Shown here: positions 51,047 to 63,530 of the stretch, piece after piece
Numbering within the stretch: position 1 is the stretch's first letter
Layout: the number at the start of each line of letters is the position of its first letter
Assembly: GCA_028695415.1 (NCBI GenBank)
Contig: JAQVIY010000001.1
Coordinates: forward strand, 113,067 to 177,066
From: Minisyncoccota bacterium
GTDB lineage: Bacteria; Patescibacteriota; Minisyncoccia; Phycocordibacterales; Phycocordibacteraceae
Length of the DNA stretch: 64,000 nucleotides
Direction: 5' to 3'
Notes under the pieces: model-generated
Databases searched by the model: none
What the model saw: the letters and a program-made list of their open reading frames with translations, nothing else
What the model was told of the DNA's origin: nothing
Program-made: the position numbers and the translations under genes

Positions 51047-51460
51047 TTACGGGCACGGCACCTTCGGGGCATTCAATATTTCAAGTACCTTGTCGGCAAT
51101 TCCTTCAAGTTTCCAATCTGACTTCACCATAAAGAACGAGGGGCCGAGCTCGGCGATATTTCGTATTTGAACGTCTTCATCTGCGCTTAGATTGGTGAGG
51201 ATGACGACCGGGACGCACTTACCCCAATCATTCTTCCCGCGCAGTTCTTTGAGCATCTCCCAGCCGTCCATCATCGGCATAAGGATATCGAGCAGAATAA
51301 TATCAGGAAGTTCTTTGAGCGCCACCATAAGACCGCTCATGCCGTTTTTAGCCTCTATAACAGTCAATCCTGCCTCAACGAGCGAGGAGCGGAGTGCCTT
51401 GAGCATGGCCTCATCATCTTCAACCACAAGAACTTTATTTTTTGTCATGTCCGTAGCCAT
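51047..51460 (-). CDS. single-domain response regulator (CheY-like receiver)
   Basis: VLVVEDDEAM...DIILLDILMP with conserved Asp and Lys positions. Start chosen at MATDM, just downstream of the kinase stop. Confidence 0.85.
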   Translation of the reverse strand: MATDMTKNKVLVVEDDEAMLKALRSSLVEAGLTVIEAKNGMSGLMVALKELPDIILLDILMPMMDGWEMLKELRGKNDWGKCVPVVILTNLSADEDVQIRNIAELGPSFFMVKSDWKLEGIADKVLEILNAPKVPCP

Positions 51461-51467
51461 GGTGACA

Positions 51468-53816
51468 TTATACCACCGGTCGCGCCTCTTTCGGGAGCAA
51501 GAGATAGAACGTTGTCCCCTCCCCTTCTTTAGAAACAAACCAGATGATGCCTCCTATGATATCCGCCATTATCTTCGACATGTAGAGCCCAAGCCCGTTG
51601 CCGTTGGGATCCTGCATTTTTGCATTATCGGCGCGATAGAACTTAGAGAATACCTTCTCCTTGACGCTCTCTGGCACCCCGATACCGGAGTCGTGGACAG
51701 CGACGAGCACCGAATCCTGTGCGGCTATCTTTCCTGCAACGGACTCTCCGGCGATGACATTCTCAAGGGAGATAACGACTTCCCCGCCGTCTTTTGAATA
51801 TTTAAGGGCATTCGAGACGAAATTCTGTACGATGATACGGGCGAGATCCGCGTCGGTGAGCACACGAGAGAGAGAGTTCTGATACTTCTCGACAACACGC
51901 AACTTCTTTCGCTCCGCCTGCAGTTGAAGTTCCGCCTGTATCGATCGCGAGATGGCGATAAGATCGGTCGGAGCAGTGTTTTTCGTCTGGGTGCCGGTCT
52001 CGAGGCGCAAGACATGCAAGAACGAGTTGATGATTTCATTCATCTGCCGTCCGGCCAGAGCGATCTCATTGAAATATTCTTTCTGTTTAGCGGTCATCTT
52101 ACCCGCATCGCCGCCAAGAAGCATTTCTGAATACCAATTGATGGCAGTAAGCGGCGTGCGCAGCTGGTGCGACGCGAGCGAGATAAATTCGGTCTTAGCG
52201 GTATCTATCTCTTTCTCTTTCGTGATATCCCGCTCGATGCCGACGAAGAATACTATCTTGTCATTAGAATCGAGTACCGGGGAAATATTGATGAGCGCCG
52301 TATAGAGCTGCCCGTTCTTCCTTTTATTCTGCATCTCCCCGATGAAGGTCTCCTTCCGGTCCTTGATGGTATGCCAGAGATTCTCGTAATAGTCTTTAGG
52401 CATCGGCGACTTCCAGAGCACTCCGGATTTCTTACCCAGCGCCTCTTCCGGCTTGTAGCCCGTTATCTTTTCGACCGCCGCATTGGCATAGATAACCGTT
52501 CCCTCAGGGTCCGTGATGATGATCTGATCCGAGGCATTATCGATCGCCAATTTGAATTTTTTCAGATCATTCGCGAGACGCTCGGCCTTCATTTTCTCCT
52601 CTTCAAGCTTCTCTTCTTCGTCTTTAAGATCCGCAGCGATATTAAATGCAGCCTGTTCGCTCTCTTTTGCTTCTTCGGTCTTCTCAGCAAGTTCTTTTGT
52701 CCGTTCACTCACCTTTTGTTCAAGCGTGATGCGAGATTCCTGCAGTTTGCTGATCATGGCATTAAAGGTGGTTGCCAGAATACCGACATCGTCTTTCGAC
52801 GTGATGACGATGCTTTGGTTCAGATCCCCTTGTGCGATTTTATTTGCAAATGCCGTGAGCGCATGTACCGGACCCGTTATGGACCTCGACATGGTGACCG
52901 CGACGGCGATAATCAGCGCGCTGATGATGGAAACAATAAGCAGGAACAATTCCTGCAAATGCCGTATCGGCGTATATGCTTCGGTCTGATCTATTTTGAC
53001 GACGATCCCCCATCCGGTGCTCTCGATATATCGCGTCGCCGCAAAGACTTTTATGCCGCGATAATCGACTGCGTTCAATAGAAGCGCTTCCTCTCCGCGA
53101 ACGGCGCGTATCGTCGGCAGCATTTGACTTGCTGGCACAACTCGCGAGAGTGCGGCAGAAGGGTCAAAACGAGTCGGGGTCAAGAAAAGCGCATTTCCAT
53201 CGCTTGTCTCAGTGACAACCAATGTCTCTCCTGTTTTCCCAAATCCCGCAAAATCATGAGAAATATTGACGATATCGTCAGCATCGGTTACCACCACCGC
53301 GACCCCCTCAGTTTTGTCGGCAATAAGCGGGCCGGCAAGATATTGTGAGACGGTGCCATCTGCATCTTTCCCCAACACCGATTCATCGTTAGCGTGCAGG
53401 CCTCGCTTAAAATAGGCCTCGGTTTGTATATCCGTACCAATAAGAGCCTTATCGCTTGAGGCGACAACGATACCTGCGGTTGTCGCTAAAAATAATTTTC
53501 GTATCCCGACCGCTCTCCCCGGCGCTTCTACCAACTCCTGTAATTTTTCCTTATTCAACAACGTCGGTTGTGCATTATACCCTTGCAGGGCGCCGACAAA
53601 CGACGAACTCGTGGTGAATAAGTTCAGAATATCCAATTTGTTGTTCAACGTATCTTCAAGCCGATTCTTTTGCGTTTCAGCGAGACTGTCGAGGGTGGTG
53701 TAGGTCTTGGCGTTCACCTGTTCTTGTGATGCCAGAAATGCAAGCGTCCCGCCTACCAACCACGGTATGAGAGCGACTTGCATGACGATGATAACGATTT
53801 TTGTATTCAGGCTCAT
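51468..53816 (-). CDS. sensor histidine kinase (TM, extracytoplasmic Cache-like domain, HAMP, PAS, HisKA, HATPase)
   Basis: H-box LASHQLRTPL. N, G1 and G2 boxes (DSGIGVP, GNGLGL). PAS region (PEGTVIYANAAVEKITGYKPEEALG). Start ATG overlaps the upstream gene's stop (ATGA). Confidence 0.9.
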   Translation of the reverse strand: MSLNTKIVIIVMQVALIPWLVGGTLAFLASQEQVNAKTYTTLDSLAETQKNRLEDTLNNKLDILNLFTTSSSFVGALQGYNAQPTLLNKEKLQELVEAPGRAVGIRKLFLATTAGIVVASSDKALIGTDIQTEAYFKRGLHANDESVLGKDADGTVSQYLAGPLIADKTEGVAVVVTDADDIVNISHDFAGFGKTGETLVVTETSDGNALFLTPTRFDPSAALSRVVPASQMLPTIRAVRGEEALLLNAVDYRGIKVFAATRYIESTGWGIVVKIDQTEAYTPIRHLQELFLLIVSIISALIIAVAVTMSRSITGPVHALTAFANKIAQGDLNQSIVITSKDDVGILATTFNAMISKLQESRITLEQKVSERTKELAEKTEEAKESEQAAFNIAADLKDEEEKLEEEKMKAERLANDLKKFKLAIDNASDQIIITDPEGTVIYANAAVEKITGYKPEEALGKKSGVLWKSPMPKDYYENLWHTIKDRKETFIGEMQNKRKNGQLYTALINISPVLDSNDKIVFFVGIERDITKEKEIDTAKTEFISLASHQLRTPLTAINWYSEMLLGGDAGKMTAKQKEYFNEIALAGRQMNEIINSFLHVLRLETGTQTKNTAPTDLIAISRSIQAELQLQAERKKLRVVEKYQNSLSRVLTDADLARIIVQNFVSNALKYSKDGGEVVISLENVIAGESVAGKIAAQDSVLVAVHDSGIGVPESVKEKVFSKFYRADNAKMQDPNGNGLGLYMSKIMADIIGGIIWFVSKEGEGTTFYLLLPKEARPVV

Positions 53817-54472
53817 GGGTTCTTTTCTGCACGGTTCACAAAGGCGAGTCCGATTCCAAGGAGGATGAAACAAAGTGCTGTATTGAACGCCATGGGCACA
53901 CTCGCGTTATTGAATTCGAAATACAGGGCGGGAACGTTGAACGCATACCCGATCATAGCAACACAGGCAATAGCAATGATGGCAAAGCTCATAATAGTAA
54001 TATATTGTTTACGAAAAACGGTCGCGAAATTTGCAATAACGGTGACTACCGAAAAAATCATGAAATTCAGCAGTGCGGGGATGGAAGGCAGCCCGCTGAC
54101 CGGTTCAAGATTGGTAATCGTCAATATATCTGGCTGTCGCACAAATAATGTTTCTATACCCGTTGGTATGCCAAGCAGTCTGCCCGCCAACATCGAACTT
54201 GCCACAATAGCGAGGGTCAATGCGATACCGGGCAGAAATACACCCGCGACCTCGTCTTCGTCTTGAACGACGCGAGATATAAGAAAGAGACCGCTAGCAC
54301 TAAGGAGGAACAGAAAAGCCGTTACGAACTTCATGTTGATGCTCACGTGTGCAGACACAATGCGCGTGAACGCATCAATATCAAAAACCCAACCCGCCAT
54401 AACAATGATCGAATATATTCCAATCACTACCGCCAGAAGATGTGCAATTCGGTGACGAGCAAAACGGATCAT
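53813..54472 (-). CDS. polytopic membrane protein (about 6 TM helices), possible stand-alone membrane sensor module
   Basis: Hydrophobic helices throughout. Translationally coupled to the downstream kinase. Confidence 0.55.
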   Translation of the reverse strand: MIRFARHRIAHLLAVVIGIYSIIVMAGWVFDIDAFTRIVSAHVSINMKFVTAFLFLLSASGLFLISRVVQDEDEVAGVFLPGIALTLAIVASSMLAGRLLGIPTGIETLFVRQPDILTITNLEPVSGLPSIPALLNFMIFSVVTVIANFATVFRKQYITIMSFAIIAIACVAMIGYAFNVPALYFEFNNASVPMAFNTALCFILLGIGLAFVNRAEKNP

Positions 54473-54474
54473 AG

Positions 54475-56553
54475 CTACTCTGAAGCGAGCTTCGCCTTCA
54501 GTTTCTCTATCTCATTCTTCAGCTCAATCATCTTGAGCTCTCTCCCGACCATGAGCTTGTTGATGTTCTCGATCTCCTCGAGATGTTCTTGACTCTTCTG
54601 TTCCGCTTCTTTCTGTTCGGTGACATCCTGCACCATCGAGAGTACGCCGATTACCGCCCCGTCCGGCTGCTTTAAGGGCGTATTGACCCAGTCGCAGATG
54701 ATGGTGCGGCCGTCCTTAGTCGTATTCTCGTTCACGCTGCGCGCCGACTCATCGCCGGCGAGCAGCCGACCCCAGACATCATTCACTTGGGGCTGCGCGC
54801 TCTTCGGCACGATAAGATCGTACGGATGCTTTCCGATTGCCTCCTCGGACGTAAAGCCGAATATCTTTTCTGCCGCGGGATTCCAGGTAACCACAAGGAA
54901 ATTCTTGTCCCAGAGAATATGGCCGATAGGCATGCGATCCACCTCGAAGCGCAACCGTTCTTCGTTCTTCTTTAAGGCTTCTCCAGCCACCTTGCGCTCG
55001 GTGATGTCCTGAGCTGTACCGCGGAGACCAATCACCTTGCCTTCCTCATTACGGATCGTCTCGCTCCGCGCCGTAATCCAGCGGACCGAATCGGTCGGAC
55101 GAGCGATTTCTAGATCGATTTCGTACGGCTCGCCCGTTTCTGTATTTTTCTTTACTGCCGCGTCGAGCAGTGCCGCACTCTCTGGCGTGTATATCTTGAG
55201 GTGTTCTTCATAGTTCGGAGGATGTTGCGTAGGATCAAGGCCGAAGAGGTGATAATACTCCTTCGACCATGTGATAGTGTCTGTCGCGATATCCCAGCTC
55301 CAGTTGCCGATCCGCCCCACGCGCTGAGCCTCTCTGAGCTCTCGTTCACTTTCGCTCAATTTCTTCTCGGCGCTCTTACGCTCCGTCACATCGATGCCGT
55401 AGGAGATGGTCCCAATGACAGCTCCATCGTCATGCAGGTCGGAGTTTCGCCATTCGATTATCCGCTCTTCGCCGCTCTTCGTGAGAATAGGGTTTTCGAA
55501 GTCCCCGATGATGGACTCCCTCTTCTTCTTGAATTCCTCGAACACCTCCCACACCTTCGGGTATCGGTTGCGTGGCGCAATGATCTCGAACCAATTCCGG
55601 CCAAGCACCTCGTCCTTCCGGTACCCAGTCACTTTCTCAGCGACTTCATTGAACGCCGTGACCCTGCCTTCAAGGTCAAGACATACGATCATCGCGTTCG
55701 AGAAACGGATGAGCTCTTCGGAATAGTGGATCGCTTTCTTATACTCTGTCTCAATGGTCTGCCGATCGAGCAGGTTCTTAAGCAATCGGTCCACTTCTTC
55801 CGAAGTTCCTTTCCCGGCCATCAGGAACTCGTCGACAGGAACGTAGTAAAAATTACGGCAGACGGTATTGCCGACCACGACGATCGGGTGCGTGTGAATG
55901 ACGTCGAGAAGGATTGCCGGCGAGAAACGCTGACGATTGTACTGACAGATGGCGAGCGCATCGTTCGCCGGGAAAAAACGGTTGAGTTTCGCCTCATACT
56001 CGATGAGGCGGTCAGTGCCCTTCTCACCGCCGAGCATCCAGGTCATCTCGCCAGTTGCCCGAAGCGCAGAATATCCCTCCTTTTTCGCCGCATTTGTCGA
56101 GTCGGTAAGGAACCGGATCATTTCATCCGGATCGAAATAGCCGTTACGCAAATACGCTTCCCGCTTCGTGATCACGGCGAGCGAACCTTTCTTGAGCGCC
56201 GCATCCACATCAATGCCGCCCGCCCGCATGGAGGCAAGAACCTCATCGACGGTATTGTCATCCGCGATGTACACGCATTTTTCTCCGCGCTCAAGCCCGA
56301 TGCGCATGAACGGAACGACCGCCGCAAACTGTTCTTCCTTATTGGCATAAATGAGGCACAAATGATCGTGCATCGAAACGTCCTCAATGGCGCGTACGAG
56401 ACTTGTCGCGCCCGATCCGGCCGGATTTTTTTCGTCATTCGCAATGGTGAGGGACATGAGGATAGGAGGAGACATTTTTCCGTCTCTATTTCCTATTGTA
56501 CGCCAACGCGGTGCGCGAAAACACCCCGCAAAGCGGAGCGTGTGCACAAGCAC
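54475..56553 (-). CDS. cytoplasmic sensor protein: N-terminal MEDS-like domain, three to four PAS/PAC domains and a C-terminal coiled coil; no kinase domain
   Basis: HLCLIYANKEEQFAAVVPFMRIGLERGEKCVYI resembles the MEDS domain. Repeated PAS segments (VTGYRKDEVLGRNWFEI; EKIFGFTSEEAIGKHPYDLI). Start is 10 nt after the RR stop. Confidence 0.7.
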   Translation of the reverse strand: MLVHTLRFAGCFRAPRWRTIGNRDGKMSPPILMSLTIANDEKNPAGSGATSLVRAIEDVSMHDHLCLIYANKEEQFAAVVPFMRIGLERGEKCVYIADDNTVDEVLASMRAGGIDVDAALKKGSLAVITKREAYLRNGYFDPDEMIRFLTDSTNAAKKEGYSALRATGEMTWMLGGEKGTDRLIEYEAKLNRFFPANDALAICQYNRQRFSPAILLDVIHTHPIVVVGNTVCRNFYYVPVDEFLMAGKGTSEEVDRLLKNLLDRQTIETEYKKAIHYSEELIRFSNAMIVCLDLEGRVTAFNEVAEKVTGYRKDEVLGRNWFEIIAPRNRYPKVWEVFEEFKKKRESIIGDFENPILTKSGEERIIEWRNSDLHDDGAVIGTISYGIDVTERKSAEKKLSESERELREAQRVGRIGNWSWDIATDTITWSKEYYHLFGLDPTQHPPNYEEHLKIYTPESAALLDAAVKKNTETGEPYEIDLEIARPTDSVRWITARSETIRNEEGKVIGLRGTAQDITERKVAGEALKKNEERLRFEVDRMPIGHILWDKNFLVVTWNPAAEKIFGFTSEEAIGKHPYDLIVPKSAQPQVNDVWGRLLAGDESARSVNENTTKDGRTIICDWVNTPLKQPDGAVIGVLSMVQDVTEQKEAEQKSQEHLEEIENINKLMVGRELKMIELKNEIEKLKAKLASE

Positions 56554-56562
56554 GAGGTATCG

Positions 56563-56934
56563 TCACTTCGAGTGTATGAGAACGTTTTTTATCTTTTCAA
56601 CTATCTCGTTGATGGGGTGTTCGGACTTTACATAATAATCGGCGGCACCGAGAGACAGGGCGCGCTTGATATCGCTGTCTTCGCCGAGATTCGAGACGAC
56701 GACCACGGGTATCATCTTCAGCATTTGGTCAGACTTCAGTGACTCAAGCACCTCGAAGCCATTCCTCTTCGGTAGAAGGAGGTCGAGCACGATAGCGTCT
56801 GGATTAGTATCCTTCGCTAGAGTGAGCGCGGCATCGCCGTCGTTGGCAACAGCAACATCATAGCCGGATTTTTCAAATTTTTCTTGCAAGACTTTTGAAA
56901 GCACCTCTTCGTCTTCAATGACTAAAATTTTCAT
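56563..56934 (-). CDS. single-domain response regulator (CheY-like receiver)
   Basis: MKILVIEDEEV...DAIVLDLLLPKRNG with conserved Asp and Lys. Confidence 0.88.
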   Translation of the reverse strand: MKILVIEDEEVLSKVLQEKFEKSGYDVAVANDGDAALTLAKDTNPDAIVLDLLLPKRNGFEVLESLKSDQMLKMIPVVVVSNLGEDSDIKRALSLGAADYYVKSEHPINEIVEKIKNVLIHSK

Positions 56935-56959: not shown

Positions 56960-58414
56960 TTAGGATTCTATTTCCTCGATATTCTGCACCACATACTGCT
57001 TATTCTTCTCGATTGTCTCCGCTATTTTCTTCAGCGCAGACTTCATGTCTCGTGCCTCTAGGTCGGTTATAGCATCGCCATTATACTTCACTAAGAGGCT
57101 GTCTACCTCTTTTTTTATTATACCAAATGCCGTCTGGATGTCGCGCTGGGCAACCACGATCCGGCGGCGGCGTTGTTCTCGCTCCTTTTTGCCGATATAC
57201 CAGCCGAACGCGCCTCCTGCGAGGAGCGCAAGAATAAGGCTTATAAAGAATGAGGTTCGAGTGATGCCGACACCCGCGATAGTGATGAGCGGTATCTCAG
57301 AAATATCGAGTATTACTCGGCTCTCGGCTGTATTTCCCGCCCTATCAACCGCTTGTACGACGAGGCTATGTTTCCCCGCCTGCTGCGGAGGAAGCGTGTA
57401 TTTCGCGAGCATCGTGGTAGTCGAGAGCGTCCCGTCGAGCATAATCTTGTAATCGAGAATACCGGAAGGCTGATCATTGGTTCCGAACGCGATGGTCGGA
57501 GCGACATTTGCGGTCGTAAGTCCGTCGGGCGATGTCACGGTAAAACTAAGCGGCGGCGCGCTATCAATGCCGATGCGGTAATGCACGGTAGGGCCCCAGC
57601 CGACAGAATCTTTGAAGCGCACGTGCAGGTACCATATGCCGTCGGTAAGCGGACTGAACGTCTTATTATTGAAAAGCCCTTCAGAGGCAGTTGGGTCAAA
57701 CGTCGGCTGTTGATTGACCGCCGTAGCCACGTCGGTCACCTCTCGCGGCAAATCCCACTGAACGATGAACTTGGTAACGTCCGCATACCATGCGGACGAG
57801 TCGGGATAGAGCGGCACCGTGAGCACTGGTTTCGTCGGAAGACCCGTTGCGGTTACCGCCGTTCGAGTTATCTGAGATGGTGCGATAACTGCGGCGGTTT
57901 GCGAAGCGCTGCTCGTAAGCTGGAGACCGTTCATCGCCGTCAAAACGTTCGTACCGCTCCCATCACTTGCCGTCACCGCACCATCAGAGAAAATGATGCT
58001 GACCGCACCAGTACCCTTTACTTTGAAGGCTATACGGAGCACTTCGAGCGCCTTGCCGGATATGCCGCTTTGGCTCCCGCCGATAAAGGTCACCTGCCCC
58101 GCGTCATTTGAGAATGACGGCCCTTGAAGCCAGAAATCAAATGCCGACGTGCTTTTATCAAGACTGGTCACCTGCACGGTGTCTTTAGGGAACGTAATCG
58201 TCGCTTGCGCGGCGTTCACACCGACATCGGTGCTATCTATCTTTACATCTACCGTGAACGTATTCCCGACCGAGAACGTCTCTTTATCGGCAGTGAGGTT
58301 ATATGATGCGGCGCGCGCGGAGTACGGCGCGCCAAATACGAAGAAGAGCATCGCTATGCTTGAAAGCACTACGGCACGCTTCGTTACTGTCATTCTTGAA
58401 GTATACACCGTCAT
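56960..58414 (-). CDS. cell-surface anchoring protein: signal peptide, cohesin-like domain, C-terminal TM helix and a cytoplasmic coiled-coil tail
   Basis: The region after the signal peptide (ASYNLTADKETFSVGNTFTVDVKIDS...GQVTFIGGSQSGISGKALEVLRIAFKVKGTGAVSIIF) has the cohesin beta-sandwich pattern. TM helix FFISLILALLAGGAFGWYIG near the C-terminus. Confidence 0.6.
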   Translation of the reverse strand: MTVYTSRMTVTKRAVVLSSIAMLFFVFGAPYSARAASYNLTADKETFSVGNTFTVDVKIDSTDVGVNAAQATITFPKDTVQVTSLDKSTSAFDFWLQGPSFSNDAGQVTFIGGSQSGISGKALEVLRIAFKVKGTGAVSIIFSDGAVTASDGSGTNVLTAMNGLQLTSSASQTAAVIAPSQITRTAVTATGLPTKPVLTVPLYPDSSAWYADVTKFIVQWDLPREVTDVATAVNQQPTFDPTASEGLFNNKTFSPLTDGIWYLHVRFKDSVGWGPTVHYRIGIDSAPPLSFTVTSPDGLTTANVAPTIAFGTNDQPSGILDYKIMLDGTLSTTTMLAKYTLPPQQAGKHSLVVQAVDRAGNTAESRVILDISEIPLITIAGVGITRTSFFISLILALLAGGAFGWYIGKKEREQRRRRIVVAQRDIQTAFGIIKKEVDSLLVKYNGDAITDLEARDMKSALKKIAETIEKNKQYVVQNIEEIES

Positions 58415-58422
58415 ACCTGCAA

Positions 58423-61400
58423 TTATTTCTTCAAGGTGCGGACAAAGATGCTCAAGTCAGTGACATCGACTTTCCCGTCGCCGTTCAGATCATCGAGAAG
58501 TTGTGTCGCCTTGTTCGAGGAACTCCAGCGGGAAAGGAAGATGCTCCAGTCCTGCACATTTATCACGCCGTCCTGATTGAAGTCGGTCTGAGGAGTGAAG
58601 AGTGTCGTCACGGTGAACACTTTCTGAGGCGCAAAGTCGCTCGCTACACCGGAGGGCGAGGTCTGGCGAACCCGCACGGTGTGGCTGCCGAGCGAGAGAG
58701 AGCCGGTCGGATAAAGGATCTTATACGCGCCATCGGCGTCTGCCTTGGCCGTGACGGAGACTGCTTTGCCGTCAACCTGGGCGCTCACAGTGTATCCCGG
58801 CACCGCCATACCAATAAACCCGACGGTATCATTTTGTCGAACGGTCGGCCGAACGAGACCGAGGGTCGGCGAGAGCGCGGTATCAAGCGCAAGGAGCGCA
58901 TTGCTGCTCGTGTAATTAGCATTGAACGCCTTTATCTGGGTCGTGCGCCCGAGATCGTCAACACCGACAATGCCATAGGAACCAATCCCGACCGTAATTC
59001 CTTTCAGGAGGATTGAGAACGAACCGTTTGCTCGCGCCGTCGCTTGTCCTGCGAGAGTCGCTCCCGCCGGTGACACGGCGAGCACCTGCACACTCGCGTT
59101 CGGGAACGCTCGTCCGGAGATCTGTACGCCGGTTATCGCCGGTACCGGTTCAAGACCCGTACCGCCGCCGCTCACGCCCGTCACCGGTACAACCGGTATA
59201 GCTGAGAACAGCAGGCTCTGTGTCGAGGAAACATCGAGGCCGGTGGACTGCGTATCGGAGAGCGAGAGCGTTACCGTCTCAGCGACAGTATCGGAAAGCG
59301 AGATTGTCCCGACGCCGTTTGTCATCGTCACGAGCCCGGCCCCCGTAGCAGAGCCGTCCGTGCGAAGTGTCACGCCCGATACGATTGTCGTGTCGACATT
59401 TCCGTTCTCGTCTTGCGCTTCAACAGTTACGATAGCGGGTGTCCCTACTTGCACCGATGCGGGAGGAAGGATGACGAGCCGCGTCGCGACTATCGGTATC
59501 GCACTCACGGTCACCGAATCAACTGCGTCTTGAACGCCCGCACTGTCAGGAGCTGATGCGTTGTCGGACGCGGTGATGAGCCACGTGCCGGGGGTCTCGT
59601 CATAATACCAGAACGTACCCGAGGAACTGCCGTCGTTGATGGTCGCAAAGGTCGTCGGAGCTCCACCTACCGCGACCGCATAAAAGGCGGTCGTCGTTCC
59701 GGTTGAAGACGAATAAAAGTAGGCGAGCGTTACCCCCGTCGTCACGAGGTTGTTGTATTGGTCTTCGCGAGTCACGGTGTATCCGAGCCGCGTGCCTGCG
59801 GTCATATTACCCGGGTCGTTGAGGAGGAACTTCGCGACAGTTGCCGGCTGTACGGCGATAGCGTCGCTTGCATCAGCGATACCGCTTGCGTCGGGCGCTG
59901 TCGCGTTGTCAGAAACCGTAATGAACCAATTCCCTGCTTTTTCGTCGTATGCCCAGAAAGCTCCTGAAGAATTTCCATTCGAGATAACGAGCGAGGTGAT
60001 AGCGCTCCCTCCTGACGCGGAATCATAGAACTTTTTATTCACGCCGGTCGAAGAGCTGTAGAGATACGCATCCGTTGCACCCGTCGTCACCAGATTTCCG
60101 TATTGATCTTTACGGGTGACCGTATATCCGATGCGCACGCCCGCCGCCGAATCCCCCGGGTTATCGAGCGAGAACTGTGCGACGGCCCCCGGAGCAAAGG
60201 TGAGCGGCTGTGTCGAAGAGACATCGAGACCGGTACCTTGCGAATCGGCAAGAGAGAGTGTTCGCGTTCCCGCATGCGTATCGGAGAGCGGGAGCGTACC
60301 GACGCCGTTTACGATATTCACGAGTCCGGTGCCAGTTACGGTACCCGTCGCGGAAAGCGTCACATCGCTCTCATACGAGGTGTCGACATTACCGCTTCCA
60401 TCCTGCGCCTGCACCGTGACCGTTATCGGTGCGTCTACCGTCCCGTTTACAGGCGGGAGGATAACGAACCGCGTCGCAACTATCGGGGCCGCGTTTACTG
60501 CAACAGCGTCAGAAGCATCTGCGACACCCGTTGCCCCATCGGCAGTCGGCGTTGCATCAGAGACGGTCACGTTCCAGGTTCCTAGATTCGGATCCTCGTA
60601 CCAGAACGACGCGGACGATGCGCTATCGGGTATCGCAAGCGAGGTGATGCTGTTTCCGAGAGAAGCGGCATCATAAAACGCCGGGGAGCTCGTCCCGACG
60701 GAATTGCTGTAGAGATACACGTTTGTGCTGCCGCTTGTCGCGAGATTATTGAACTGGTCCTTGCGCGTCACGGTGTACCCAATCCGCGTGTCGACAGTCA
60801 TATCGCCAGGGTCATTGAGGGAGAGTGCAGCCGTCGGTCCCGCGACGACTCCAAGCGTTTGTACGGCATCATTGACGCCTGTAGTGCCGTCAGGCGCAGA
60901 CGCGTTGTCCGAAGCGGTAATACTCCAGCTCCCTGGAAGAGTGTCGTAATACCAGACACTCGCGCTCGACTGACCGGCAACTATCTGTACTGAAGATATG
61001 ACCGCACCGCCTGTCGCGGCGTCATAGAACTTCTTACTGCTTCCTGTCGAAGAACTATAGAGATATACCGTGCTGGTCGCAGACGAGCTTACATTGCCGT
61101 ACTGATCCTTGCGCGTCACGGTGTACGCCGCTCGTTCTCCCGCAATCAGCGTCGAGGGATTAGAAAGAGAGAACTGTGCAAGAACTCCTCCTGTGAAAGC
61201 GAGCGACTGTGTCGAAGATACATCGAGTCCGGTACTCTCTGAATCAGAGAGTGAGAGCGCCGCCGTCTCAGCAACCGTGTCTGAGATGGCGAGCGTGCCG
61301 ACGCCGTTTATGATATCTACGAGTCCGCCGCCGGTGGCAGAGCCGGTCGTCGCGAGCGTCACGTCGCTTTGATAATTAGTATCGACGCTGGTATCGGGTT

Positions 61401-63117
61401 TCTGCGCCTGCACCGTGACCGTTATCGGTGCGTCTACGGTCCCGCTTGTAGGAGGCAGGATGACGAACTTCGTCGCAACCGGCATCACCGTGACCGCATC
61501 AGTTGCGTCAGTGATGCCGGTAGCCCCGTCAGCGACCGGTGTCGCATCGGAAGCGGTGATGGTATATGAGCCCGGCGTCTCGTCGTAGTACCAGACGTTC
61601 GCCGTCGAATGTCCCGAACCTATCGCGATAGAGGTGATGACGGAACCTGCGAGAGAATCGTCATAAAACTTCTGCGTCCCTCCCGTCGAAGTGGTATAGA
61701 GGTAGACGGTCGTCGTCCCTGTGCCGACGGCATTCCCATACGAATCAAACCGGCTCACGGTATAGCCGAGTCGCGTTTTCGCGTACATGTCACCTGGGTT
61801 AGTAAGGGTAAGCGAAGCAACGGCTCCCGTGGCGACTACGAACGACTGGTCGACATTTGAGGCAGCAGTATAGTTGCTGTCCCCCGCTTGTGAGGCACGA
61901 ATGGTACAGGTGCCGATTGAGACAAGGTGCACGGTTGCCGTACTCACCGTACAGACACCGGCCGTAAGCGATGAGAATGAGACCGCGAGGCCGGAAGATG
62001 CGGTCGCGCTTACCGCGAAGTCAGCCTCGCCGAGCGTCTTGTTCGGGAGCGGGTTGAAGGTGATCGTCTGACTCGCAGGATTGATCGTGAATGTGCCGGC
62101 AGAAGCGGCAGTCAAGCTCGTATAGCTTGTCGTATCCGTCGGGACGAAGTTTGCAGTAACCGCATAGGAGCCGCCATTCGTTTGTGTTGCAGCACCACCC
62201 GTAAGCACAGTGTTCGCTGCTCCCGGAACGGATCCGGTAACCGTAGCCGCCTGAGCGGATCCGGTATAGGTGACGGGCGAATTGGTAACCGAGAGTGTGG
62301 GGGTCGCGCGCGTATCGTTCGTCACGCTGAGCTTGCCGGTTGTCGCCGCAAAGTACGTATTATTTTTATAGGTTGCCGTAGAGCTGGTGGAGCCCCAAGT
62401 GCCGTTGATTCTGCCGAGCCCGCCGAGCGTGAGATTAGCGACCGTGAGAGTAGTCCCCGCACCGATACTCGCTGTCGGTGTCCCGGTAGACGCGACACTG
62501 AGCGTGCCTCCGATTGAAATGCCCGACGCCATGGACTTTGTTCCGCTCCCGGAAAGCGTCACGTTGTTGTAAGTGAATACACCAAGCGTTTGATTGCCGG
62601 ACGCTGAATAGCTTGCGGTGCTGCCTGAGTTATACGCCCAATTGGCGATGCCCGTGGTCGCGGCAGTTGTGCTGAAATTGATAACGCCTCCATTATTGAC
62701 CTGCACGGTAGGACTATTCCCTGCGCCATTCTTGTTAAGACCATTGCTAACGGTTATTCGGAATGTTCCATTGACTACCATTCCGGGGTTCAGATTGTTT
62801 TTGATACCGAAGACCTTTCCTCCGTCCGTGAGTGTTCCGCCGCTGTTTATGGTGACAACGCCGGACTGGTTGAGGTTCGCACTCAGGCTCACCGTATCGC
62901 CAGACGCGATGATAACTGTGTCACTTGTCGCCGGCACGACACCGCCCGCCCATGTAGAGCCAACACTCCAGATACCACCACCGGTCCCGTTGCTTGTTCT
63001 TGTCGCGGCGAATGCCGTATTGGCTCCACTCAAAACGAACAACACTGCACTCACTATCACAACACGTCGGCAGATGGTACTCATAAAGTGAATATAAAGA
63101 TTAGTATCTCTATACAA
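58423..63117 (-). CDS. giant secreted surface protein (about 1560 aa): signal peptide, beta-strand-rich N-terminal region, Ig-like/MBG-like domains, two interleaved tandem repeat families, and a C-terminal type-I dockerin
   Basis: C-terminal DFNQDGVINVQD...DLNGDGKVDVTD is a two-loop calcium-binding dockerin. N-terminal signal peptide. The start may be the internal ATG 33 nt downstream. Confidence 0.85.
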   Translation of the reverse strand: MYRDTNLYIHFMSTICRRVVIVSAVLFVLSGANTAFAATRTSNGTGGGIWSVGSTWAGGVVPATSDTVIIASGDTVSLSANLNQSGVVTINSGGTLTDGGKVFGIKNNLNPGMVVNGTFRITVSNGLNKNGAGNSPTVQVNNGGVINFSTTAATTGIANWAYNSGSTASYSASGNQTLGVFTYNNVTLSGSGTKSMASGISIGGTLSVASTGTPTASIGAGTTLTVANLTLGGLGRINGTWGSTSSTATYKNNTYFAATTGKLSVTNDTRATPTLSVTNSPVTYTGSAQAATVTGSVPGAANTVLTGGAATQTNGGSYAVTANFVPTDTTSYTSLTAASAGTFTINPASQTITFNPLPNKTLGEADFAVSATASSGLAVSFSSLTAGVCTVSTATVHLVSIGTCTIRASQAGDSNYTAASNVDQSFVVATGAVASLTLTNPGDMYAKTRLGYTVSRFDSYGNAVGTGTTTVYLYTTSTGGTQKFYDDSLAGSVITSIAIGSGHSTANVWYYDETPGSYTITASDATPVADGATGITDATDAVTVMPVATKFVILPPTSGTVDAPITVTVQAQKPDTSVDTNYQSDVTLATTGSATGGGLVDIINGVGTLAISDTVAETAALSLSDSESTGLDVSSTQSLAFTGGVLAQFSLSNPSTLIAGERAAYTVTRKDQYGNVSSSATSTVYLYSSSTGSSKKFYDAATGGAVISSVQIVAGQSSASVWYYDTLPGSWSITASDNASAPDGTTGVNDAVQTLGVVAGPTAALSLNDPGDMTVDTRIGYTVTRKDQFNNLATSGSTNVYLYSNSVGTSSPAFYDAASLGNSITSLAIPDSASSASFWYEDPNLGTWNVTVSDATPTADGATGVADASDAVAVNAAPIVATRFVILPPVNGTVDAPITVTVQAQDGSGNVDTSYESDVTLSATGTVTGTGLVNIVNGVGTLPLSDTHAGTRTLSLADSQGTGLDVSSTQPLTFAPGAVAQFSLDNPGDSAAGVRIGYTVTRKDQYGNLVTTGATDAYLYSSSTGVNKKFYDSASGGSAITSLVISNGNSSGAFWAYDEKAGNWFITVSDNATAPDASGIADASDAIAVQPATVAKFLLNDPGNMTAGTRLGYTVTREDQYNNLVTTGVTLAYFYSSSTGTTTAFYAVAVGGAPTTFATINDGSSSGTFWYYDETPGTWLITASDNASAPDSAGVQDAVDSVTVSAIPIVATRLVILPPASVQVGTPAIVTVEAQDENGNVDTTIVSGVTLRTDGSATGAGLVTMTNGVGTISLSDTVAETVTLSLSDTQSTGLDVSSTQSLLFSAIPVVPVTGVSGGGTGLEPVPAITGVQISGRAFPNASVQVLAVSPAGATLAGQATARANGSFSILLKGITVGIGSYGIVGVDDLGRTTQIKAFNANYTSSNALLALDTALSPTLGLVRPTVRQNDTVGFIGMAVPGYTVSAQVDGKAVSVTAKADADGAYKILYPTGSLSLGSHTVRVRQTSPSGVASDFAPQKVFTVTTLFTPQTDFNQDGVINVQDWSIFLSRWSSSNKATQLLDDLNGDGKVDVTDLSIFVRTLKK
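59370..61830 (-). repeat. interleaved tandem coding repeats inside the giant protein gene (about 115-aa unit x5 and about 95-aa unit x3)
   Basis: Unit A recurs as ..YTVTRKDQYGN...VYLYSSSTG..KKFYD..GG..I.S..I..G.SS..W.YDE.PG.W.ITASDNA.APD. Unit B as VATRFVILPP..GTVDAPITVTVQAQ...GNVDT....DVTL...G..TG.GLV.I.NGVGT..LSDT.A.T..LSL.DS..TGLDVSSTQ.L.F. Boundaries approximate. Confidence 0.7.
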
Positions 63118-63233: not shown

Positions 63234-63305
63234 GGCCTCATCGTCTAACGGCTAGGACAGATCCCTCTCACGGATCAAATCGGGGTTCGATTCCCCGTGA
63301 GGTCA
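63234..63305 (+). tRNA. tRNA-Glu (anticodon CTC); CCA not encoded
   Basis: Hand-folded. Acceptor ggcctca/tgaggtc (one G-U pair), D-arm gtc-taacggctag-gac, anticodon stem gatcc/ggatc with loop ctCTCac, T-arm cgggg-ttcgatt-ccccg. Confidence 0.75.
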
Positions 63306-63354
63306 CAAGCGGCCAGCCGAGAAGCGTAAGCTTCTCGGCTGTTGCCGTCTTGTA

Positions 63355-63498
63355 GACCTCACGGGGAATCGAAGGCGAGCGCGAGTGGCCGGCTCAGCAG
63401 AGCCGGTCGCGCGAGCGTGGTCAGGCGGAGCGAGGAGTGACGACGACGAAGCGAGCGCTTGACCGAAACCGTAATCGGGGTTCCCCGTGAGGTCACCA
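63355..63498 (+). repeat. inverted (63355..63373) and direct degenerate (63474..63498, ending CCA) copies of the tRNA-Glu 3' end, bracketing GC-rich hairpins
   Basis: gacctcacggggaatcgaa is the reverse complement of the tRNA T-arm/acceptor. atcggggtt-ccccgtgaggtcacca repeats the tRNA 3' end with a 5-nt T-loop deletion. Confidence 0.6.
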
Positions 63499-63502
63499 GA
63501 GC

Positions 63503-63530
63503 AAAAACCGCCCTCGGGCGGTTTTTGCTT
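63503..63530 (+). terminator. rho-independent terminator
   Basis: aaaaaccgccc-tcg-ggcggtttttgcttt hairpin with T-tract. Confidence 0.8.

Follow-up and report, generated by a model that had tools for sequence, protein, structure and literature searches.

A probable one-to-one cohesin-dockerin tether for a variable, adhesin-like protein in CPR bacteria

The window, by which we mean the whole 64,000-nucleotide stretch of a Minisyncoccota contig analyzed here, carries two adjacent genes on the minus strand, one for a large, predicted secreted protein that ends in a dockerin and one for a membrane protein with a cohesin domain, followed by a run of co-oriented sensory genes. The features under discussion are listed below, with the source of each in parentheses where there is one to name.

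63500..63529, no strand: perfect palindrome, flanked by A/T runs, following the Mur ligase gene (inverted repeat search)
58423..63117, minus: gene for the large secreted dockerin protein (ORF list)
63007..63084, minus: predicted Sec signal peptide of the large protein, MSTICRRVVIVSAVLFVLSGANTAFA then A (read from the sequence)
62323..63006, minus: N-terminal G/S/T/N-rich 'head', aa 38-265 (marginal G8-type N-terminal motif)
61831..62322, minus: MBG-like and Ig-like region, aa 266-429 (Pfam matches of close homologs)
59203..61830, minus: array of two interleaved Ig-like repeat families, aa 430-1305 (segment-versus-whole BLASTP)
58627..59133, minus: two C-terminal Ig-like domains, Big_6-like and Big_13-like, aa ~1329-1497 (Pfam, AF2)
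58432..58587, minus: dockerin, aa 1511-1562, with a helix after each of its two Ca-binding loops (PF00404)
56960..58414, minus: cohesin anchor gene, encoding a single-pass membrane protein of 484 aa (ORF list)
57899..58315, minus: cohesin domain at the membrane-distal end of the anchor, aa 34-172
57290..57817, minus: two stalk beta-domains, aa 200-375
57194..57262, minus: transmembrane helix, aa 385-407 (hydropathy, alignment, AF2)
56963..57193, minus: conserved 77-aa cytoplasmic helical tail (alignment, AF2)
56563..56934, minus: stand-alone CheY-like response regulator (Pfam Response_reg, 82.9 bits)
51047..56553, minus: four further co-oriented sensory genes (Pfam), namely
54475-56553, minus: MEDS+3xPAS protein (Pfam)
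53813-54472, minus: 219-aa TM protein
51468-53873, minus: dCache-HAMP-PAS-HisKA-HATPase kinase (Pfam)
51047-51538, minus: second receiver (Pfam)

Both open reading frames of the pair were confirmed at these coordinates on the minus strand. The large protein, put at 1560 aa in the preliminary description, has 1564 aa when read from its TTG codon, while a probable ATG at 63084, 11 codons on, yields the 1553 aa of the deposited NCBI sequence to which it is 100% identical ('hypothetical protein PHV99_00985 [Candidatus Pacebacteria bacterium]'). Its putative signal peptide has a hydrophobic core followed by AFA. The head scores close to the G8 cut-off of 22.9 bits (23.3 bits with the whole protein and 22.4 bits with the segment alone), and a family profile search recovered no PDB sequence relative for it. 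The Ig-like domains that had been proposed for this protein are borne out; the MBG/YDG assignment belongs to its close homologs, which carry PF18887, PF18657 and PF18676 and are named 'MBG domain-containing protein', whereas aa 266-429 of the large protein of this window gave no Pfam match. The two interleaved repeat families are likewise real at the protein level, in the order A-B-A-A-B-A-A-B, with five A units of ~115 aa that are 49-53% identical and three B units of ~98 aa that are 65-69% identical (segment-versus-whole BLASTP); at the DNA level TRF found no tandem repeat in the gene. The protein is long and repetitive, and it is also acidic and low in cysteine. As originally claimed, Pfam finds no glycoside-hydrolase (GH) domain in it, nor any other catalytic family, nor a CE, PL or CBM family.

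The two C-terminal Ig-like domains are recognized by Pfam (Big_6, 33 bits; Big_13, 27.5 bits), and an AF2 model of the 265-aa C-terminal module (pLDDT 82, pTM 0.67) shows two beta-sandwiches whose closest folds by Foldseek are the adhesin extender domains of Bap, SiiE, MpIBP and LapA-like proteins, with the S-layer proteins SlaB and Sap also among the matches. Ahead of the dockerin lies the Big_13-like domain (aa ~1430-1497), co-conserved with it in the manner of an X-module. An exhaustive search with the Ig+dockerin unit gave 442 matches at E<=1e-10; in the full-module matches among the best 150 of these, the 135-aa unit aligns as one stretch at the extreme C-terminus of proteins ranging from 130 to 3360 aa. 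The dockerin itself, a two-loop version as first described, exceeds the cut-off for PF00404 (Dockerin_1, 24.2 against 22.9 bits, profile positions 2-56 of 57), and a profile of 31 orthologous dockerins matches cellulosomal dockerins in the PDB (2y3n_B, E=2.2e-13; 4fl4_A, 2.3e-9). The characteristic 12-residue Ca loop (D1, N/D3, D5, D12) with its helix is duplicated, loop 1 being DFNQDGVINVQD at 58549-58584, followed by WSIFLSRW, and loop 2 DLNGDGKVDVTD at 58456-58491, followed by LSIFVRTL. Across the 31 orthologs D1 and D12 do not vary in either loop, the two segments are identical to each other at 9 of 20 positions, and DFNQDGVINVQD with DLNGDGKVDVTD forms the sole Ca-loop pair in the six frames of the 64-kb window. 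The AF2 model places the dockerin helices at 222-232, 237-241 and 253-262 of the module (pLDDT ~75-90), while the Foldseek output is dominated by the Ig domains and yields no superposition for the dockerin.

The anchor, which NCBI starts at Met8 (477 aa), is 100% identical to a deposited 'cohesin domain-containing protein [Candidatus Pacebacteria bacterium]'. Hydropathy, alignment and AF2 uphold the topology first proposed for it: the protein starts with a signal peptide, its N-terminal part forms a beta-sandwich, a single TM segment lies at ~385-407, and the cytoplasmic tail is helical. The hydropathy maximum lies at residues 389-407, a positive-inside cluster, GKKEREQRRRR, follows the TM helix, and the AF2 model has one continuous helix at 386-444 and a second at 451-483; the tail displays the motifs IAxRD and KxYxxxNxEEIE, with R424, D425 and Y474 invariant in the alignment. 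The presence of a cohesin, on which the preliminary description had made its proposal depend, is supported by orthologs and fold and not by a direct HMM match: PF00963 gave no match at E<=0.1 on the anchor of this window but matches 12 of 31 orthologs that are 42-80% identical (best 1.9e-8), many more have precomputed matches, and the domain adopts a nine-stranded flattened beta-sandwich superposable on solved cohesins. The sequence profile of the anchor family retrieves PDB cohesins weakly (E~0.06), and cohesin HMM analysis of the window places one such domain in the anchor and none elsewhere. Conservation within the family peaks in the first of the two stalk domains (200-290); the second is Big_13-like. 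Neither protein contains an LPXTG motif, and a Pfam scan of the locus gave no SLH match.

Downstream of the anchor gene, at a distance of 25 bp, lies the CheY-like regulator, with an E7-D8-E9 acidic pocket, D51, S81 and K103. The five-gene sensory module noted earlier, comprising this receiver, the MEDS+PAS protein, the TM protein, the histidine kinase and the second receiver, is supported by Pfam; its genes overlap or are separated by 2-25 bp, and the module as a whole is kept in the closest relatives only. The regulator has an ortholog within 3 kb downstream of the anchor in 38 of 80 related loci; in another 20 the ortholog lies upstream in the same orientation (58/80 in total). On the other side, the locus adjoins the cell-division and wall genes RsmH, PBP and Mur ligase in the closest relatives, this dcw adjacency being confined to them (4/80 loci); here it is broken by an opposite-strand tRNA and by the palindrome, a terminator-like element by its sequence (14-nt arms, 100% complementary), which separates the dcw genes from the giant gene. 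Twenty other proteins of the window that we scanned are housekeeping or cell-wall proteins or gave no match.

Comparative genomics bears on how the two proteins relate. When related CPR genomes were inspected over ~10 kb on each side of the anchor, a dockerin-ending ORF was found directly upstream of the anchor gene in 76 of 78 loci (73 by tblastn and 3 divergent dockerins by motif), with a median gap of ~5 bp, and a family dockerin HMM detected exactly one dockerin ORF per locus across 1.36 Mb. The partner ORFs range from 304 to 3200 aa, some of the short ones possibly being assembly fragments, and their bodies vary between loci, the conserved part being the C-terminal Ig+dockerin tag only. 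In a mirror-tree comparison, which corrects only partly for shared phylogeny, cohesin and dockerin divergence are correlated at r=0.69, as against r=0.39 and 0.27 for either module versus the neighboring regulator and r=0.65 for the cohesin versus its own stalk; once the stalk domains are controlled for, the partial correlation is r=0.49, a value reached by 0 of 2000 permutations. The adjacency and the correlated divergence lend strong independent support to the proposed pairing of anchor and dockerin, and its occurrence in nearly every related genome examined points to a dedicated plug-and-socket rather than a cellulose-degrading machine.

Accordingly, we consider it likely that the two genes encode a dedicated, non-cellulosomal, 1:1 cohesin-dockerin tether that displays a variable adhesin-like protein. 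The anchor would be a type-I membrane protein, which, after cleavage of its signal peptide, is held by one TM helix in the cytoplasmic membrane and projects through the cell envelope a stalk of two Ig-like domains with a single type-I-like cohesin at its tip. The upstream gene would supply an Ig-repeat protein without enzymatic domains, exported by Sec and similar in build to the extender region of giant adhesins. Its last ~135 residues, the X-like Ig domain and the two-loop Ca-binding dockerin, would plug into that cohesin. We infer that this binding is physical and Ca-dependent, and it would leave the large protein non-covalently displayed on the cell surface in 1:1 stoichiometry, with lineages retaining tag and socket while freely swapping the displayed body. 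A constant tag with a variable body is what one would expect of a surface adhesin or recognition fiber, and the 'adhesin' label, which draws on fold resemblance and the absence of enzymes, carries with it the possibility that the displayed protein contacts a host cell, a role in episymbiont-host contact being plausible.

Other readings have to be weighed against this. That the locus is a minimal but genuine cellulosome, in which an anchoring scaffoldin is shared by the large protein and by dockerin-bearing polysaccharide-degrading enzymes encoded elsewhere, might be argued from the fact that cohesin and dockerin are the defining modules of cellulosomes, from a metaproteomic study that so read cohesin/dockerin proteins of another CPR lineage (10.1101/2021.08.21.457207), and from the genome being seen here in part only. 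Yet each anchor has a single cohesin, the partner is devoid of GH, CE, PL and CBM families, there is one dockerin ORF in the 64-kb window just as there is one per related locus, and the other scanned proteins are of housekeeping or cell-wall type or gave no match. Since neither glycoside hydrolases, nor a scaffoldin with several cohesins, nor SLH or sortase signals turned up in the sequence examined, the locus is not a cellulosome, and we regard the contrary as highly improbable; the 'cellulosome-style' label in the preliminary description keeps its plug-and-socket principle and loses the enzymes and the multiple cohesins and clients. It is also improbable that two genuine modules lie side by side without binding one another. 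In that case the cohesin-like domain would recognize some other ligand (itself, a glycan or the host surface), the dockerin would serve as a Ca-dependent stabilizing or wall-binding element, and adjacency would reflect a shared surface function only. Such a view sits poorly with the ~5 bp gaps in 76 of 78 genomes, with a cohesin-dockerin correlation tighter than that of the cohesin with its stalk, and with a variable partner whose conserved part is exactly the Ig-dockerin tag; further, every biochemically tested cohesin-dockerin gene pair known to us binds.

Even with a real tether, the displayed protein might be a structural component of the envelope or of cell-cell cohesion, such as an S-layer-like coat, a sheath or a chain-forming fiber, in place of a host adhesin. 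The SlaB and Sap fold matches and the RsmH, PBP and Mur ligase neighbors in the closest relatives speak for this, as do cultured Paceibacteria, which form chains with extracellular material around them (PMC12281837). However, we think it unlikely, given that the dcw linkage is limited to 4 of 80 loci and interrupted here, and that a body so extreme in length and so variable in sequence is more typical of adhesins or recognition proteins than of coats that form a lattice. As for the sensory genes, regulation or sensing of the display is suggested by how often a CheY-like receiver is linked to the pair. A bolder extension of the tether model, which we hold to be improbable, would combine the variable dockerin-tagged fiber, the TM cohesin anchor and the stand-alone receiver into a contact-sensing device, in which fiber load or binding would pass across the joint of cohesin and dockerin and along the one TM helix into the tail, whose coiled coil with invariant motifs might recruit or modulate the receiver and so signal that the ultra-small episymbiont has caught a host. 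To our knowledge, no cohesin-dockerin pair in transmembrane signaling has been described.

Among known systems, the tether resembles ScaE/CttA, in which a non-catalytic substrate-binding protein is held in a single-cohesin anchor by a C-terminal Ig-like X-module and dockerin, the genes lying in one cluster. However, ScaE is a sortase substrate (LPXTG) joined covalently to peptidoglycan, in contrast to the TM helix and conserved cytoplasmic tail seen here; CttA is part of a multi-component cellulosome as opposed to one cohesin with one client; and the organism here is a CPR bacterium without visible fiber-degrading genes. The anchoring scaffoldins SdbA, OlpA, OlpB and OlpC of Clostridium thermocellum use SLH modules on wall polysaccharide (PMC12484212). 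They bind the type I/II dockerins of enzymes or of the enzyme-loaded scaffoldin, whereas neither SLH modules nor enzymes were found here. The non-cellulosomal cohesin-dockerin modules of Clostridium perfringens NagJ/NanJ (2w1n, 2vo8, 2o4e) join secreted glycoside-hydrolase toxins to one another, while here one partner is membrane-embedded and the other lacks a catalytic domain. Archaeoglobus fulgidus has an archaeal non-cellulosomal pair (2xdh), for which we know of no established biological role and of no described conserved operon of a TM anchor with a giant partner. With SiiE, LapA/MpIBP and Bap the large protein shares the tandem Ig 'extender' fold (7dm0, E=1.8e-9; 2yn3, 5irb, 6xi3) and a comparable long, repetitive, acidic, cysteine-poor body. 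An N-terminal plug in the outer-membrane T1SS pore, or else sortase, keeps those adhesins on the cell, whereas here retention would fall to a C-terminal dockerin and a separate cohesin anchor. Finally, cohesin/dockerin-domain proteins in the 'Ca. Shapirobacterales' proteome indicate that CPR bacteria express such domains, though these belong to another lineage (Microgenomates) and were interpreted as a cellulosome, and the passage concerned describes no gene pairing, anchor architecture or synteny (10.1101/2021.08.21.457207).

What is new here is the comparative evidence for the pair. With it, cohesin-dockerin biology comes to include a system that is embedded in the membrane, free of enzymes and limited to one client, and the label 'cellulosome' should be used with caution when such genes are annotated in CPR MAGs. 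The natural pairs also constitute a small orthogonal set for the engineering of protein display, and in the many Paceibacteria/ABY1 genomes with the pair the tag can serve as a sequence marker by which to locate the main surface protein on display. CPR/Patescibacteria make up a large fraction of bacterial diversity, and beyond type IV pili little is understood of how they hold and recognize their hosts; this locus, with a conserved TM cohesin socket, an Ig-dockerin plug and a swappable displayed body, provides a concrete and testable candidate.

The locus comprises two adjacent minus-strand genes, spaced by 8 bp, which code respectively for a large secreted protein with a C-terminal dockerin and a single-pass membrane protein, the anchor, with a predicted cohesin. 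Their features are:

58423..63117, minus strand: large-protein ORF, 1564 aa from a TTG start
56960..58414, minus strand: anchor ORF, 484 aa
anchor aa 1-33: signal peptide
anchor aa 34-172: cohesin, followed by a linker
anchor aa 200-290 (window 57545-57817): stalk domain 1, a highly conserved beta-domain
anchor aa 291-375: stalk domain 2, a Big_13-like Ig domain
anchor aa 385-407: single TM helix, next to a positive-inside cluster
anchor C-terminal 77 aa: helical cytoplasmic tail, with R424, D425 and Y474 invariant

Both proteins are already publicly deposited from a 209-kb MAG contig, the larger as 'hypothetical protein PHV99_00985 [Candidatus Pacebacteria bacterium]' (1553 aa, starting at an ATG 11 codons in) and the anchor as 'cohesin domain-containing protein' (477 aa). 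The rest of the window is given over to housekeeping genes, such as those for aminoacyl-tRNA synthetases, DnaK/DnaJ, MraY, FtsW, MurG and DnaB.

The dockerin that the preliminary description placed at the end of the large protein is borne out by several lines of evidence. The C-terminus scores 24.2 bits against Pfam Dockerin_1, barely over the curated cut-off of 22.9, and its calcium loops, DFNQDGVINVQD and DLNGDGKVDVTD, are the sole such pair in a six-frame motif scan of the 64 kb. Because the single-sequence score is marginal, we built a family profile from 31 orthologous C-termini (alignment A3), in which positions 1 and 12 do not vary in either loop. This profile matches cellulosomal dockerins of known structure over both halves (2y3n_B, E=2.2e-13; 4fl4_A, 2.3e-9), with further PDB matches including 1daq, 2vn5/6 and 6kg9. 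AlphaFold, applied to the C-terminal 265 residues (pLDDT 82, pTM 0.67), predicts two beta-sandwiches and then three helices, as expected of a dockerin.

Ahead of this dockerin, the large protein displays a signal peptide, a G/S/T/N-rich head, an MBG/Ig-like region, eight Ig-like units and Big_6-like and Big_13-like domains. In the head Pfam detects only a marginal G8 motif, and the head profile otherwise gives chance-level matches to Pfam and PDB sequences, with no solved relative. Neither a single copy of either repeat nor the MBG-like region matches a significant Pfam family; homologs bear MBG/YDG families in the latter region. The Ig-like units fall into two kinds, arranged A-B-A-A-B-A-A-B, in keeping with the two interleaved repeat families initially noticed, with 49-53% identity among the A copies and 65-69% among the B copies by segment-wise BLAST. 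These copies emerged once the protein was cut into segments, self-BLAST of the whole protein returning the self match only, and Tandem Repeats Finder reports no DNA-level tandem repeat in the gene. No catalytic family was detected by Pfam in the large protein, consistent with the earlier reading that it lacks an obvious glycoside-hydrolase motif.

The C-terminal module of the large protein is similar to extender domains from giant adhesins, among them Bap (7dm0, E=1.8e-9), SiiE, the ice-binding adhesin 5irb and 6xi3, and also to some S-layer proteins. An exhaustive search with the last 135 residues against 1.84 billion representatives recovered 1861 matches (442 at E<=1e-10), and among the best 150 of these every full-module match lies at the extreme C-terminus, in proteins of 130-3360 aa. 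At the related loci the complete partner ORFs span 304 to 3200 aa (median 1133), some of the short ones possibly being assembly fragments. The partner varies in its body while retaining a constant Ig+dockerin tag, with the Ig domain accompanying the dockerin in the manner of the type II/III X-module.

The cohesin of the anchor is recognizable chiefly through its family and its predicted structure. A significant cohesin HMM match, which the preliminary description had sought in the anchor itself, was not found: the window protein has no cohesin match in Pfam, phmmer finds no match among PDB sequences, and a profile search with the anchor family against PDB yields only weak cohesin matches (E~0.06). 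Judged by this sequence criterion by itself, the proposed cohesin would be rejected. PF00963 is matched independently by 12 of 31 anchor orthologs (42-80% identical; best 1.9e-8). In an AlphaFold model derived from the family alignment (pLDDT 80.8), the proposed cohesin-like beta-sandwich is recovered, with the cohesin-FN3 construct of C. perfringens NagJ (2w1n, E=2e-11) as the top Foldseek match and single cohesins superposing at TM 0.70-0.80; the model and these matches settle the predicted fold as that of a cohesin. The signal peptide, lone TM helix and cytoplasmic helical tail likewise follow in the domain order foreseen, and neither the anchor nor the large protein contains an LPXTG motif or SLH domain. 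The best-conserved part of the anchor family is stalk domain 1 rather than the cohesin, with the motifs IWYLHVRF and GWGPTxHYRI and invariant W209, Y210 and W261-H264. A domain serving only as a spacer would not be expected to be so well conserved, and this one may touch the wall or S-layer, or take part in oligomerisation.

The pairing of the two genes is a recurrent feature of CPR genomes. Three anchor orthologs (72%, 54% and 47% identical) have a large ORF directly upstream (1836, 1307 and >3360 aa), each ending in the Ig+dockerin module, and, downstream, a small receiver. When species-representative genomes were scanned with the anchor alignment, 80 loci were recovered, each in a different CPR assembly, with record titles naming Paceibacterota, Nomura-, Wolfe-, Yonath-, Colwell-, Harrison-, Ryan-, Yanofsky-, Magasanik- and Uhrbacteria among others; the labels of some MAGs ('uncultured Saccharibacteria/Gammaproteobacteria'), cited as deposited, are probably unreliable. 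Upstream sequence is available for 78 loci, and in 73 of these tblastn places the end of the dockerin module at the anchor start (median gap ~5 bp). Three of the five exceptions have a divergent two-loop dockerin at the same place, and therefore 76/78 loci are paired; of the remaining two, one lies on a truncated contig and one on an odd contig of 3.6 kb. The latter (L077, JAKAMJ010000058.1) has a Mur ligase gene, immediately after it a truncated anchor (matching only aa 254-484) and then the receiver, without a dockerin gene, an arrangement that may stem from a deletion or an assembly artefact. Across 1.36 Mb in six frames (the window and the 80 loci, ~20 kb per related genome), the family dockerin HMM detects exactly one dockerin ORF per source.

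Pairwise divergences of cohesin and dockerin are also correlated (r=0.69), as against 0.65 for the cohesin and the stalk of its own protein, and much lower values, 0.39 and 0.27, for either module with the neighboring receiver. With the stalk controlled, the partial correlation is 0.49, a value reached in 0/2000 permutations; since the correction for phylogeny is incomplete, we take this test as supportive only. Two groups of relatives depart from the common form. In L018, L019, L026, L031, L070 and L075, the linker between the dockerin segments is ~10 residues longer, the helices are altered (DLSVFLSYL ... DLNILL) and the paired cohesins diverge furthest (35-40% identical to that of the window), making this clade a candidate for a distinct specificity group. 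The most divergent relatives (L078, L080, L081, L083 and L086) code for a second, smaller cohesin protein (~290-325 aa) between the dockerin and TM anchor genes (for example L081 7901-8812; L086 9860-10735); in this subclade one dockerin protein is therefore accompanied by a tandem pair of cohesin paralogs.

The best-supported interpretation is a dedicated 1:1 cohesin-dockerin tether, for which we infer physical binding. Here, a type-I membrane anchor would display one cohesin on the tip of an Ig stalk, to which a secreted, enzyme-free, adhesin-like protein would attach via its C-terminal Ig-dockerin tag. The CttA-ScaE system of R. flavefaciens, an adhesin anchor, is the nearest likeness. The working principle is that of cellulosome anchoring, and to this extent the original label 'cellulosome-style' stands; identity with a cellulosome fails the defining tests, as the pair lacks a scaffoldin with several cohesins, shows no dockerin-bearing enzyme in the stretches scanned, and has neither SLH nor sortase anchoring, the mechanisms set out in a 2025 review (PMC12484212). 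It is set apart by a TM helix joined to a conserved tail in the cytoplasm, by having one client, by occurring in CPR bacteria and by the receiver gene that recurs nearby.

The co-oriented sensory genes proposed downstream of the anchor are identified by Pfam and tightly spaced. A CheY-like receiver, whose phospho-acceptor residues are intact, starts 25 bp after the anchor, and is followed by a MEDS+PAS protein, a TM protein, a dCache-HAMP-PAS kinase and a second receiver, with gaps of 2-25 bp or overlaps. Of the 80 loci, 38 have an ortholog of the first receiver at most 3 kb downstream, and 20 have one upstream, transcribed from the same strand. Receiver divergence tracks the cytoplasmic tail of the anchor best (r=0.54 vs 0.27-0.46 for other modules), which is no more than a weak hint. 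The MEDS + 3xPAS protein (54475-56553) has no recognizable output domain; 2 bp after it lies the gene for a 219-aa multi-pass membrane protein (53813-54472) of no Pfam family, whose L001 counterpart has a faint O-antigen-ligase-like match (E=0.006). In the closest relatives (L001 11462-13756; also L007 and L008), an extra gene, missing from the window, separates the anchor and the small receiver; its 764-aa product has an N-terminal receiver domain (70 bits) and ~650 aa without a Pfam match. A promoter/terminator consensus scan gave counts close to shuffled expectation and is uninformative on operon structure.

Upstream lie dcw genes, a Mur ligase in the window and RsmH/PBP/Mur in close relatives. 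We discarded this linkage as a functional clue because it accompanies the pair in only 4/80 genomes and is interrupted here by a terminator-like palindrome and a tRNA, between the Mur ligase and large-protein genes:

within 63234-63529, plus strand (opposite to the pair): tRNA-Glu(CTC)
63286-63309: 3' end of the tRNA-Glu, copied twice nearby
63355-63373: inverted copy of this 3' end, 19 nt, perfect
63481-63499: direct copy, 19 nt, 95%, 190 bp away
63500-63529: perfect palindrome with 14-nt arms

The copies are possibly the scar of a tRNA fragment or of an old integration, and the palindrome looks like a bidirectional terminator.

Cohesins and dockerins outside cellulosomes occur in all domains of life (2xdh, 2vo8), and the domains of this pair are already annotated at NCBI. 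A preprint describes expressed cohesin and dockerin proteins from the metaproteome of another CPR lineage, terming them a cellulosome (10.1101/2021.08.21.457207); it is the sole CPR-related mention of these domains in the literature covered. In full-text literature on cohesin/dockerin in CPR, Patescibacteria, Parcubacteria and episymbionts, we found no account of this conserved operon of anchor and partner, of its architecture with a TM anchor or of where it occurs, and these are the points that appear new here. Cultured Paceibacteria attach to methanogens via extracellular material, and secreted Ig-like/PKD proteins are among those that they express strongly (PMC10936435, PMC12281837). Neither paper mentions cohesin or dockerin, and we propose a role for the large protein in host attachment as plausible only.
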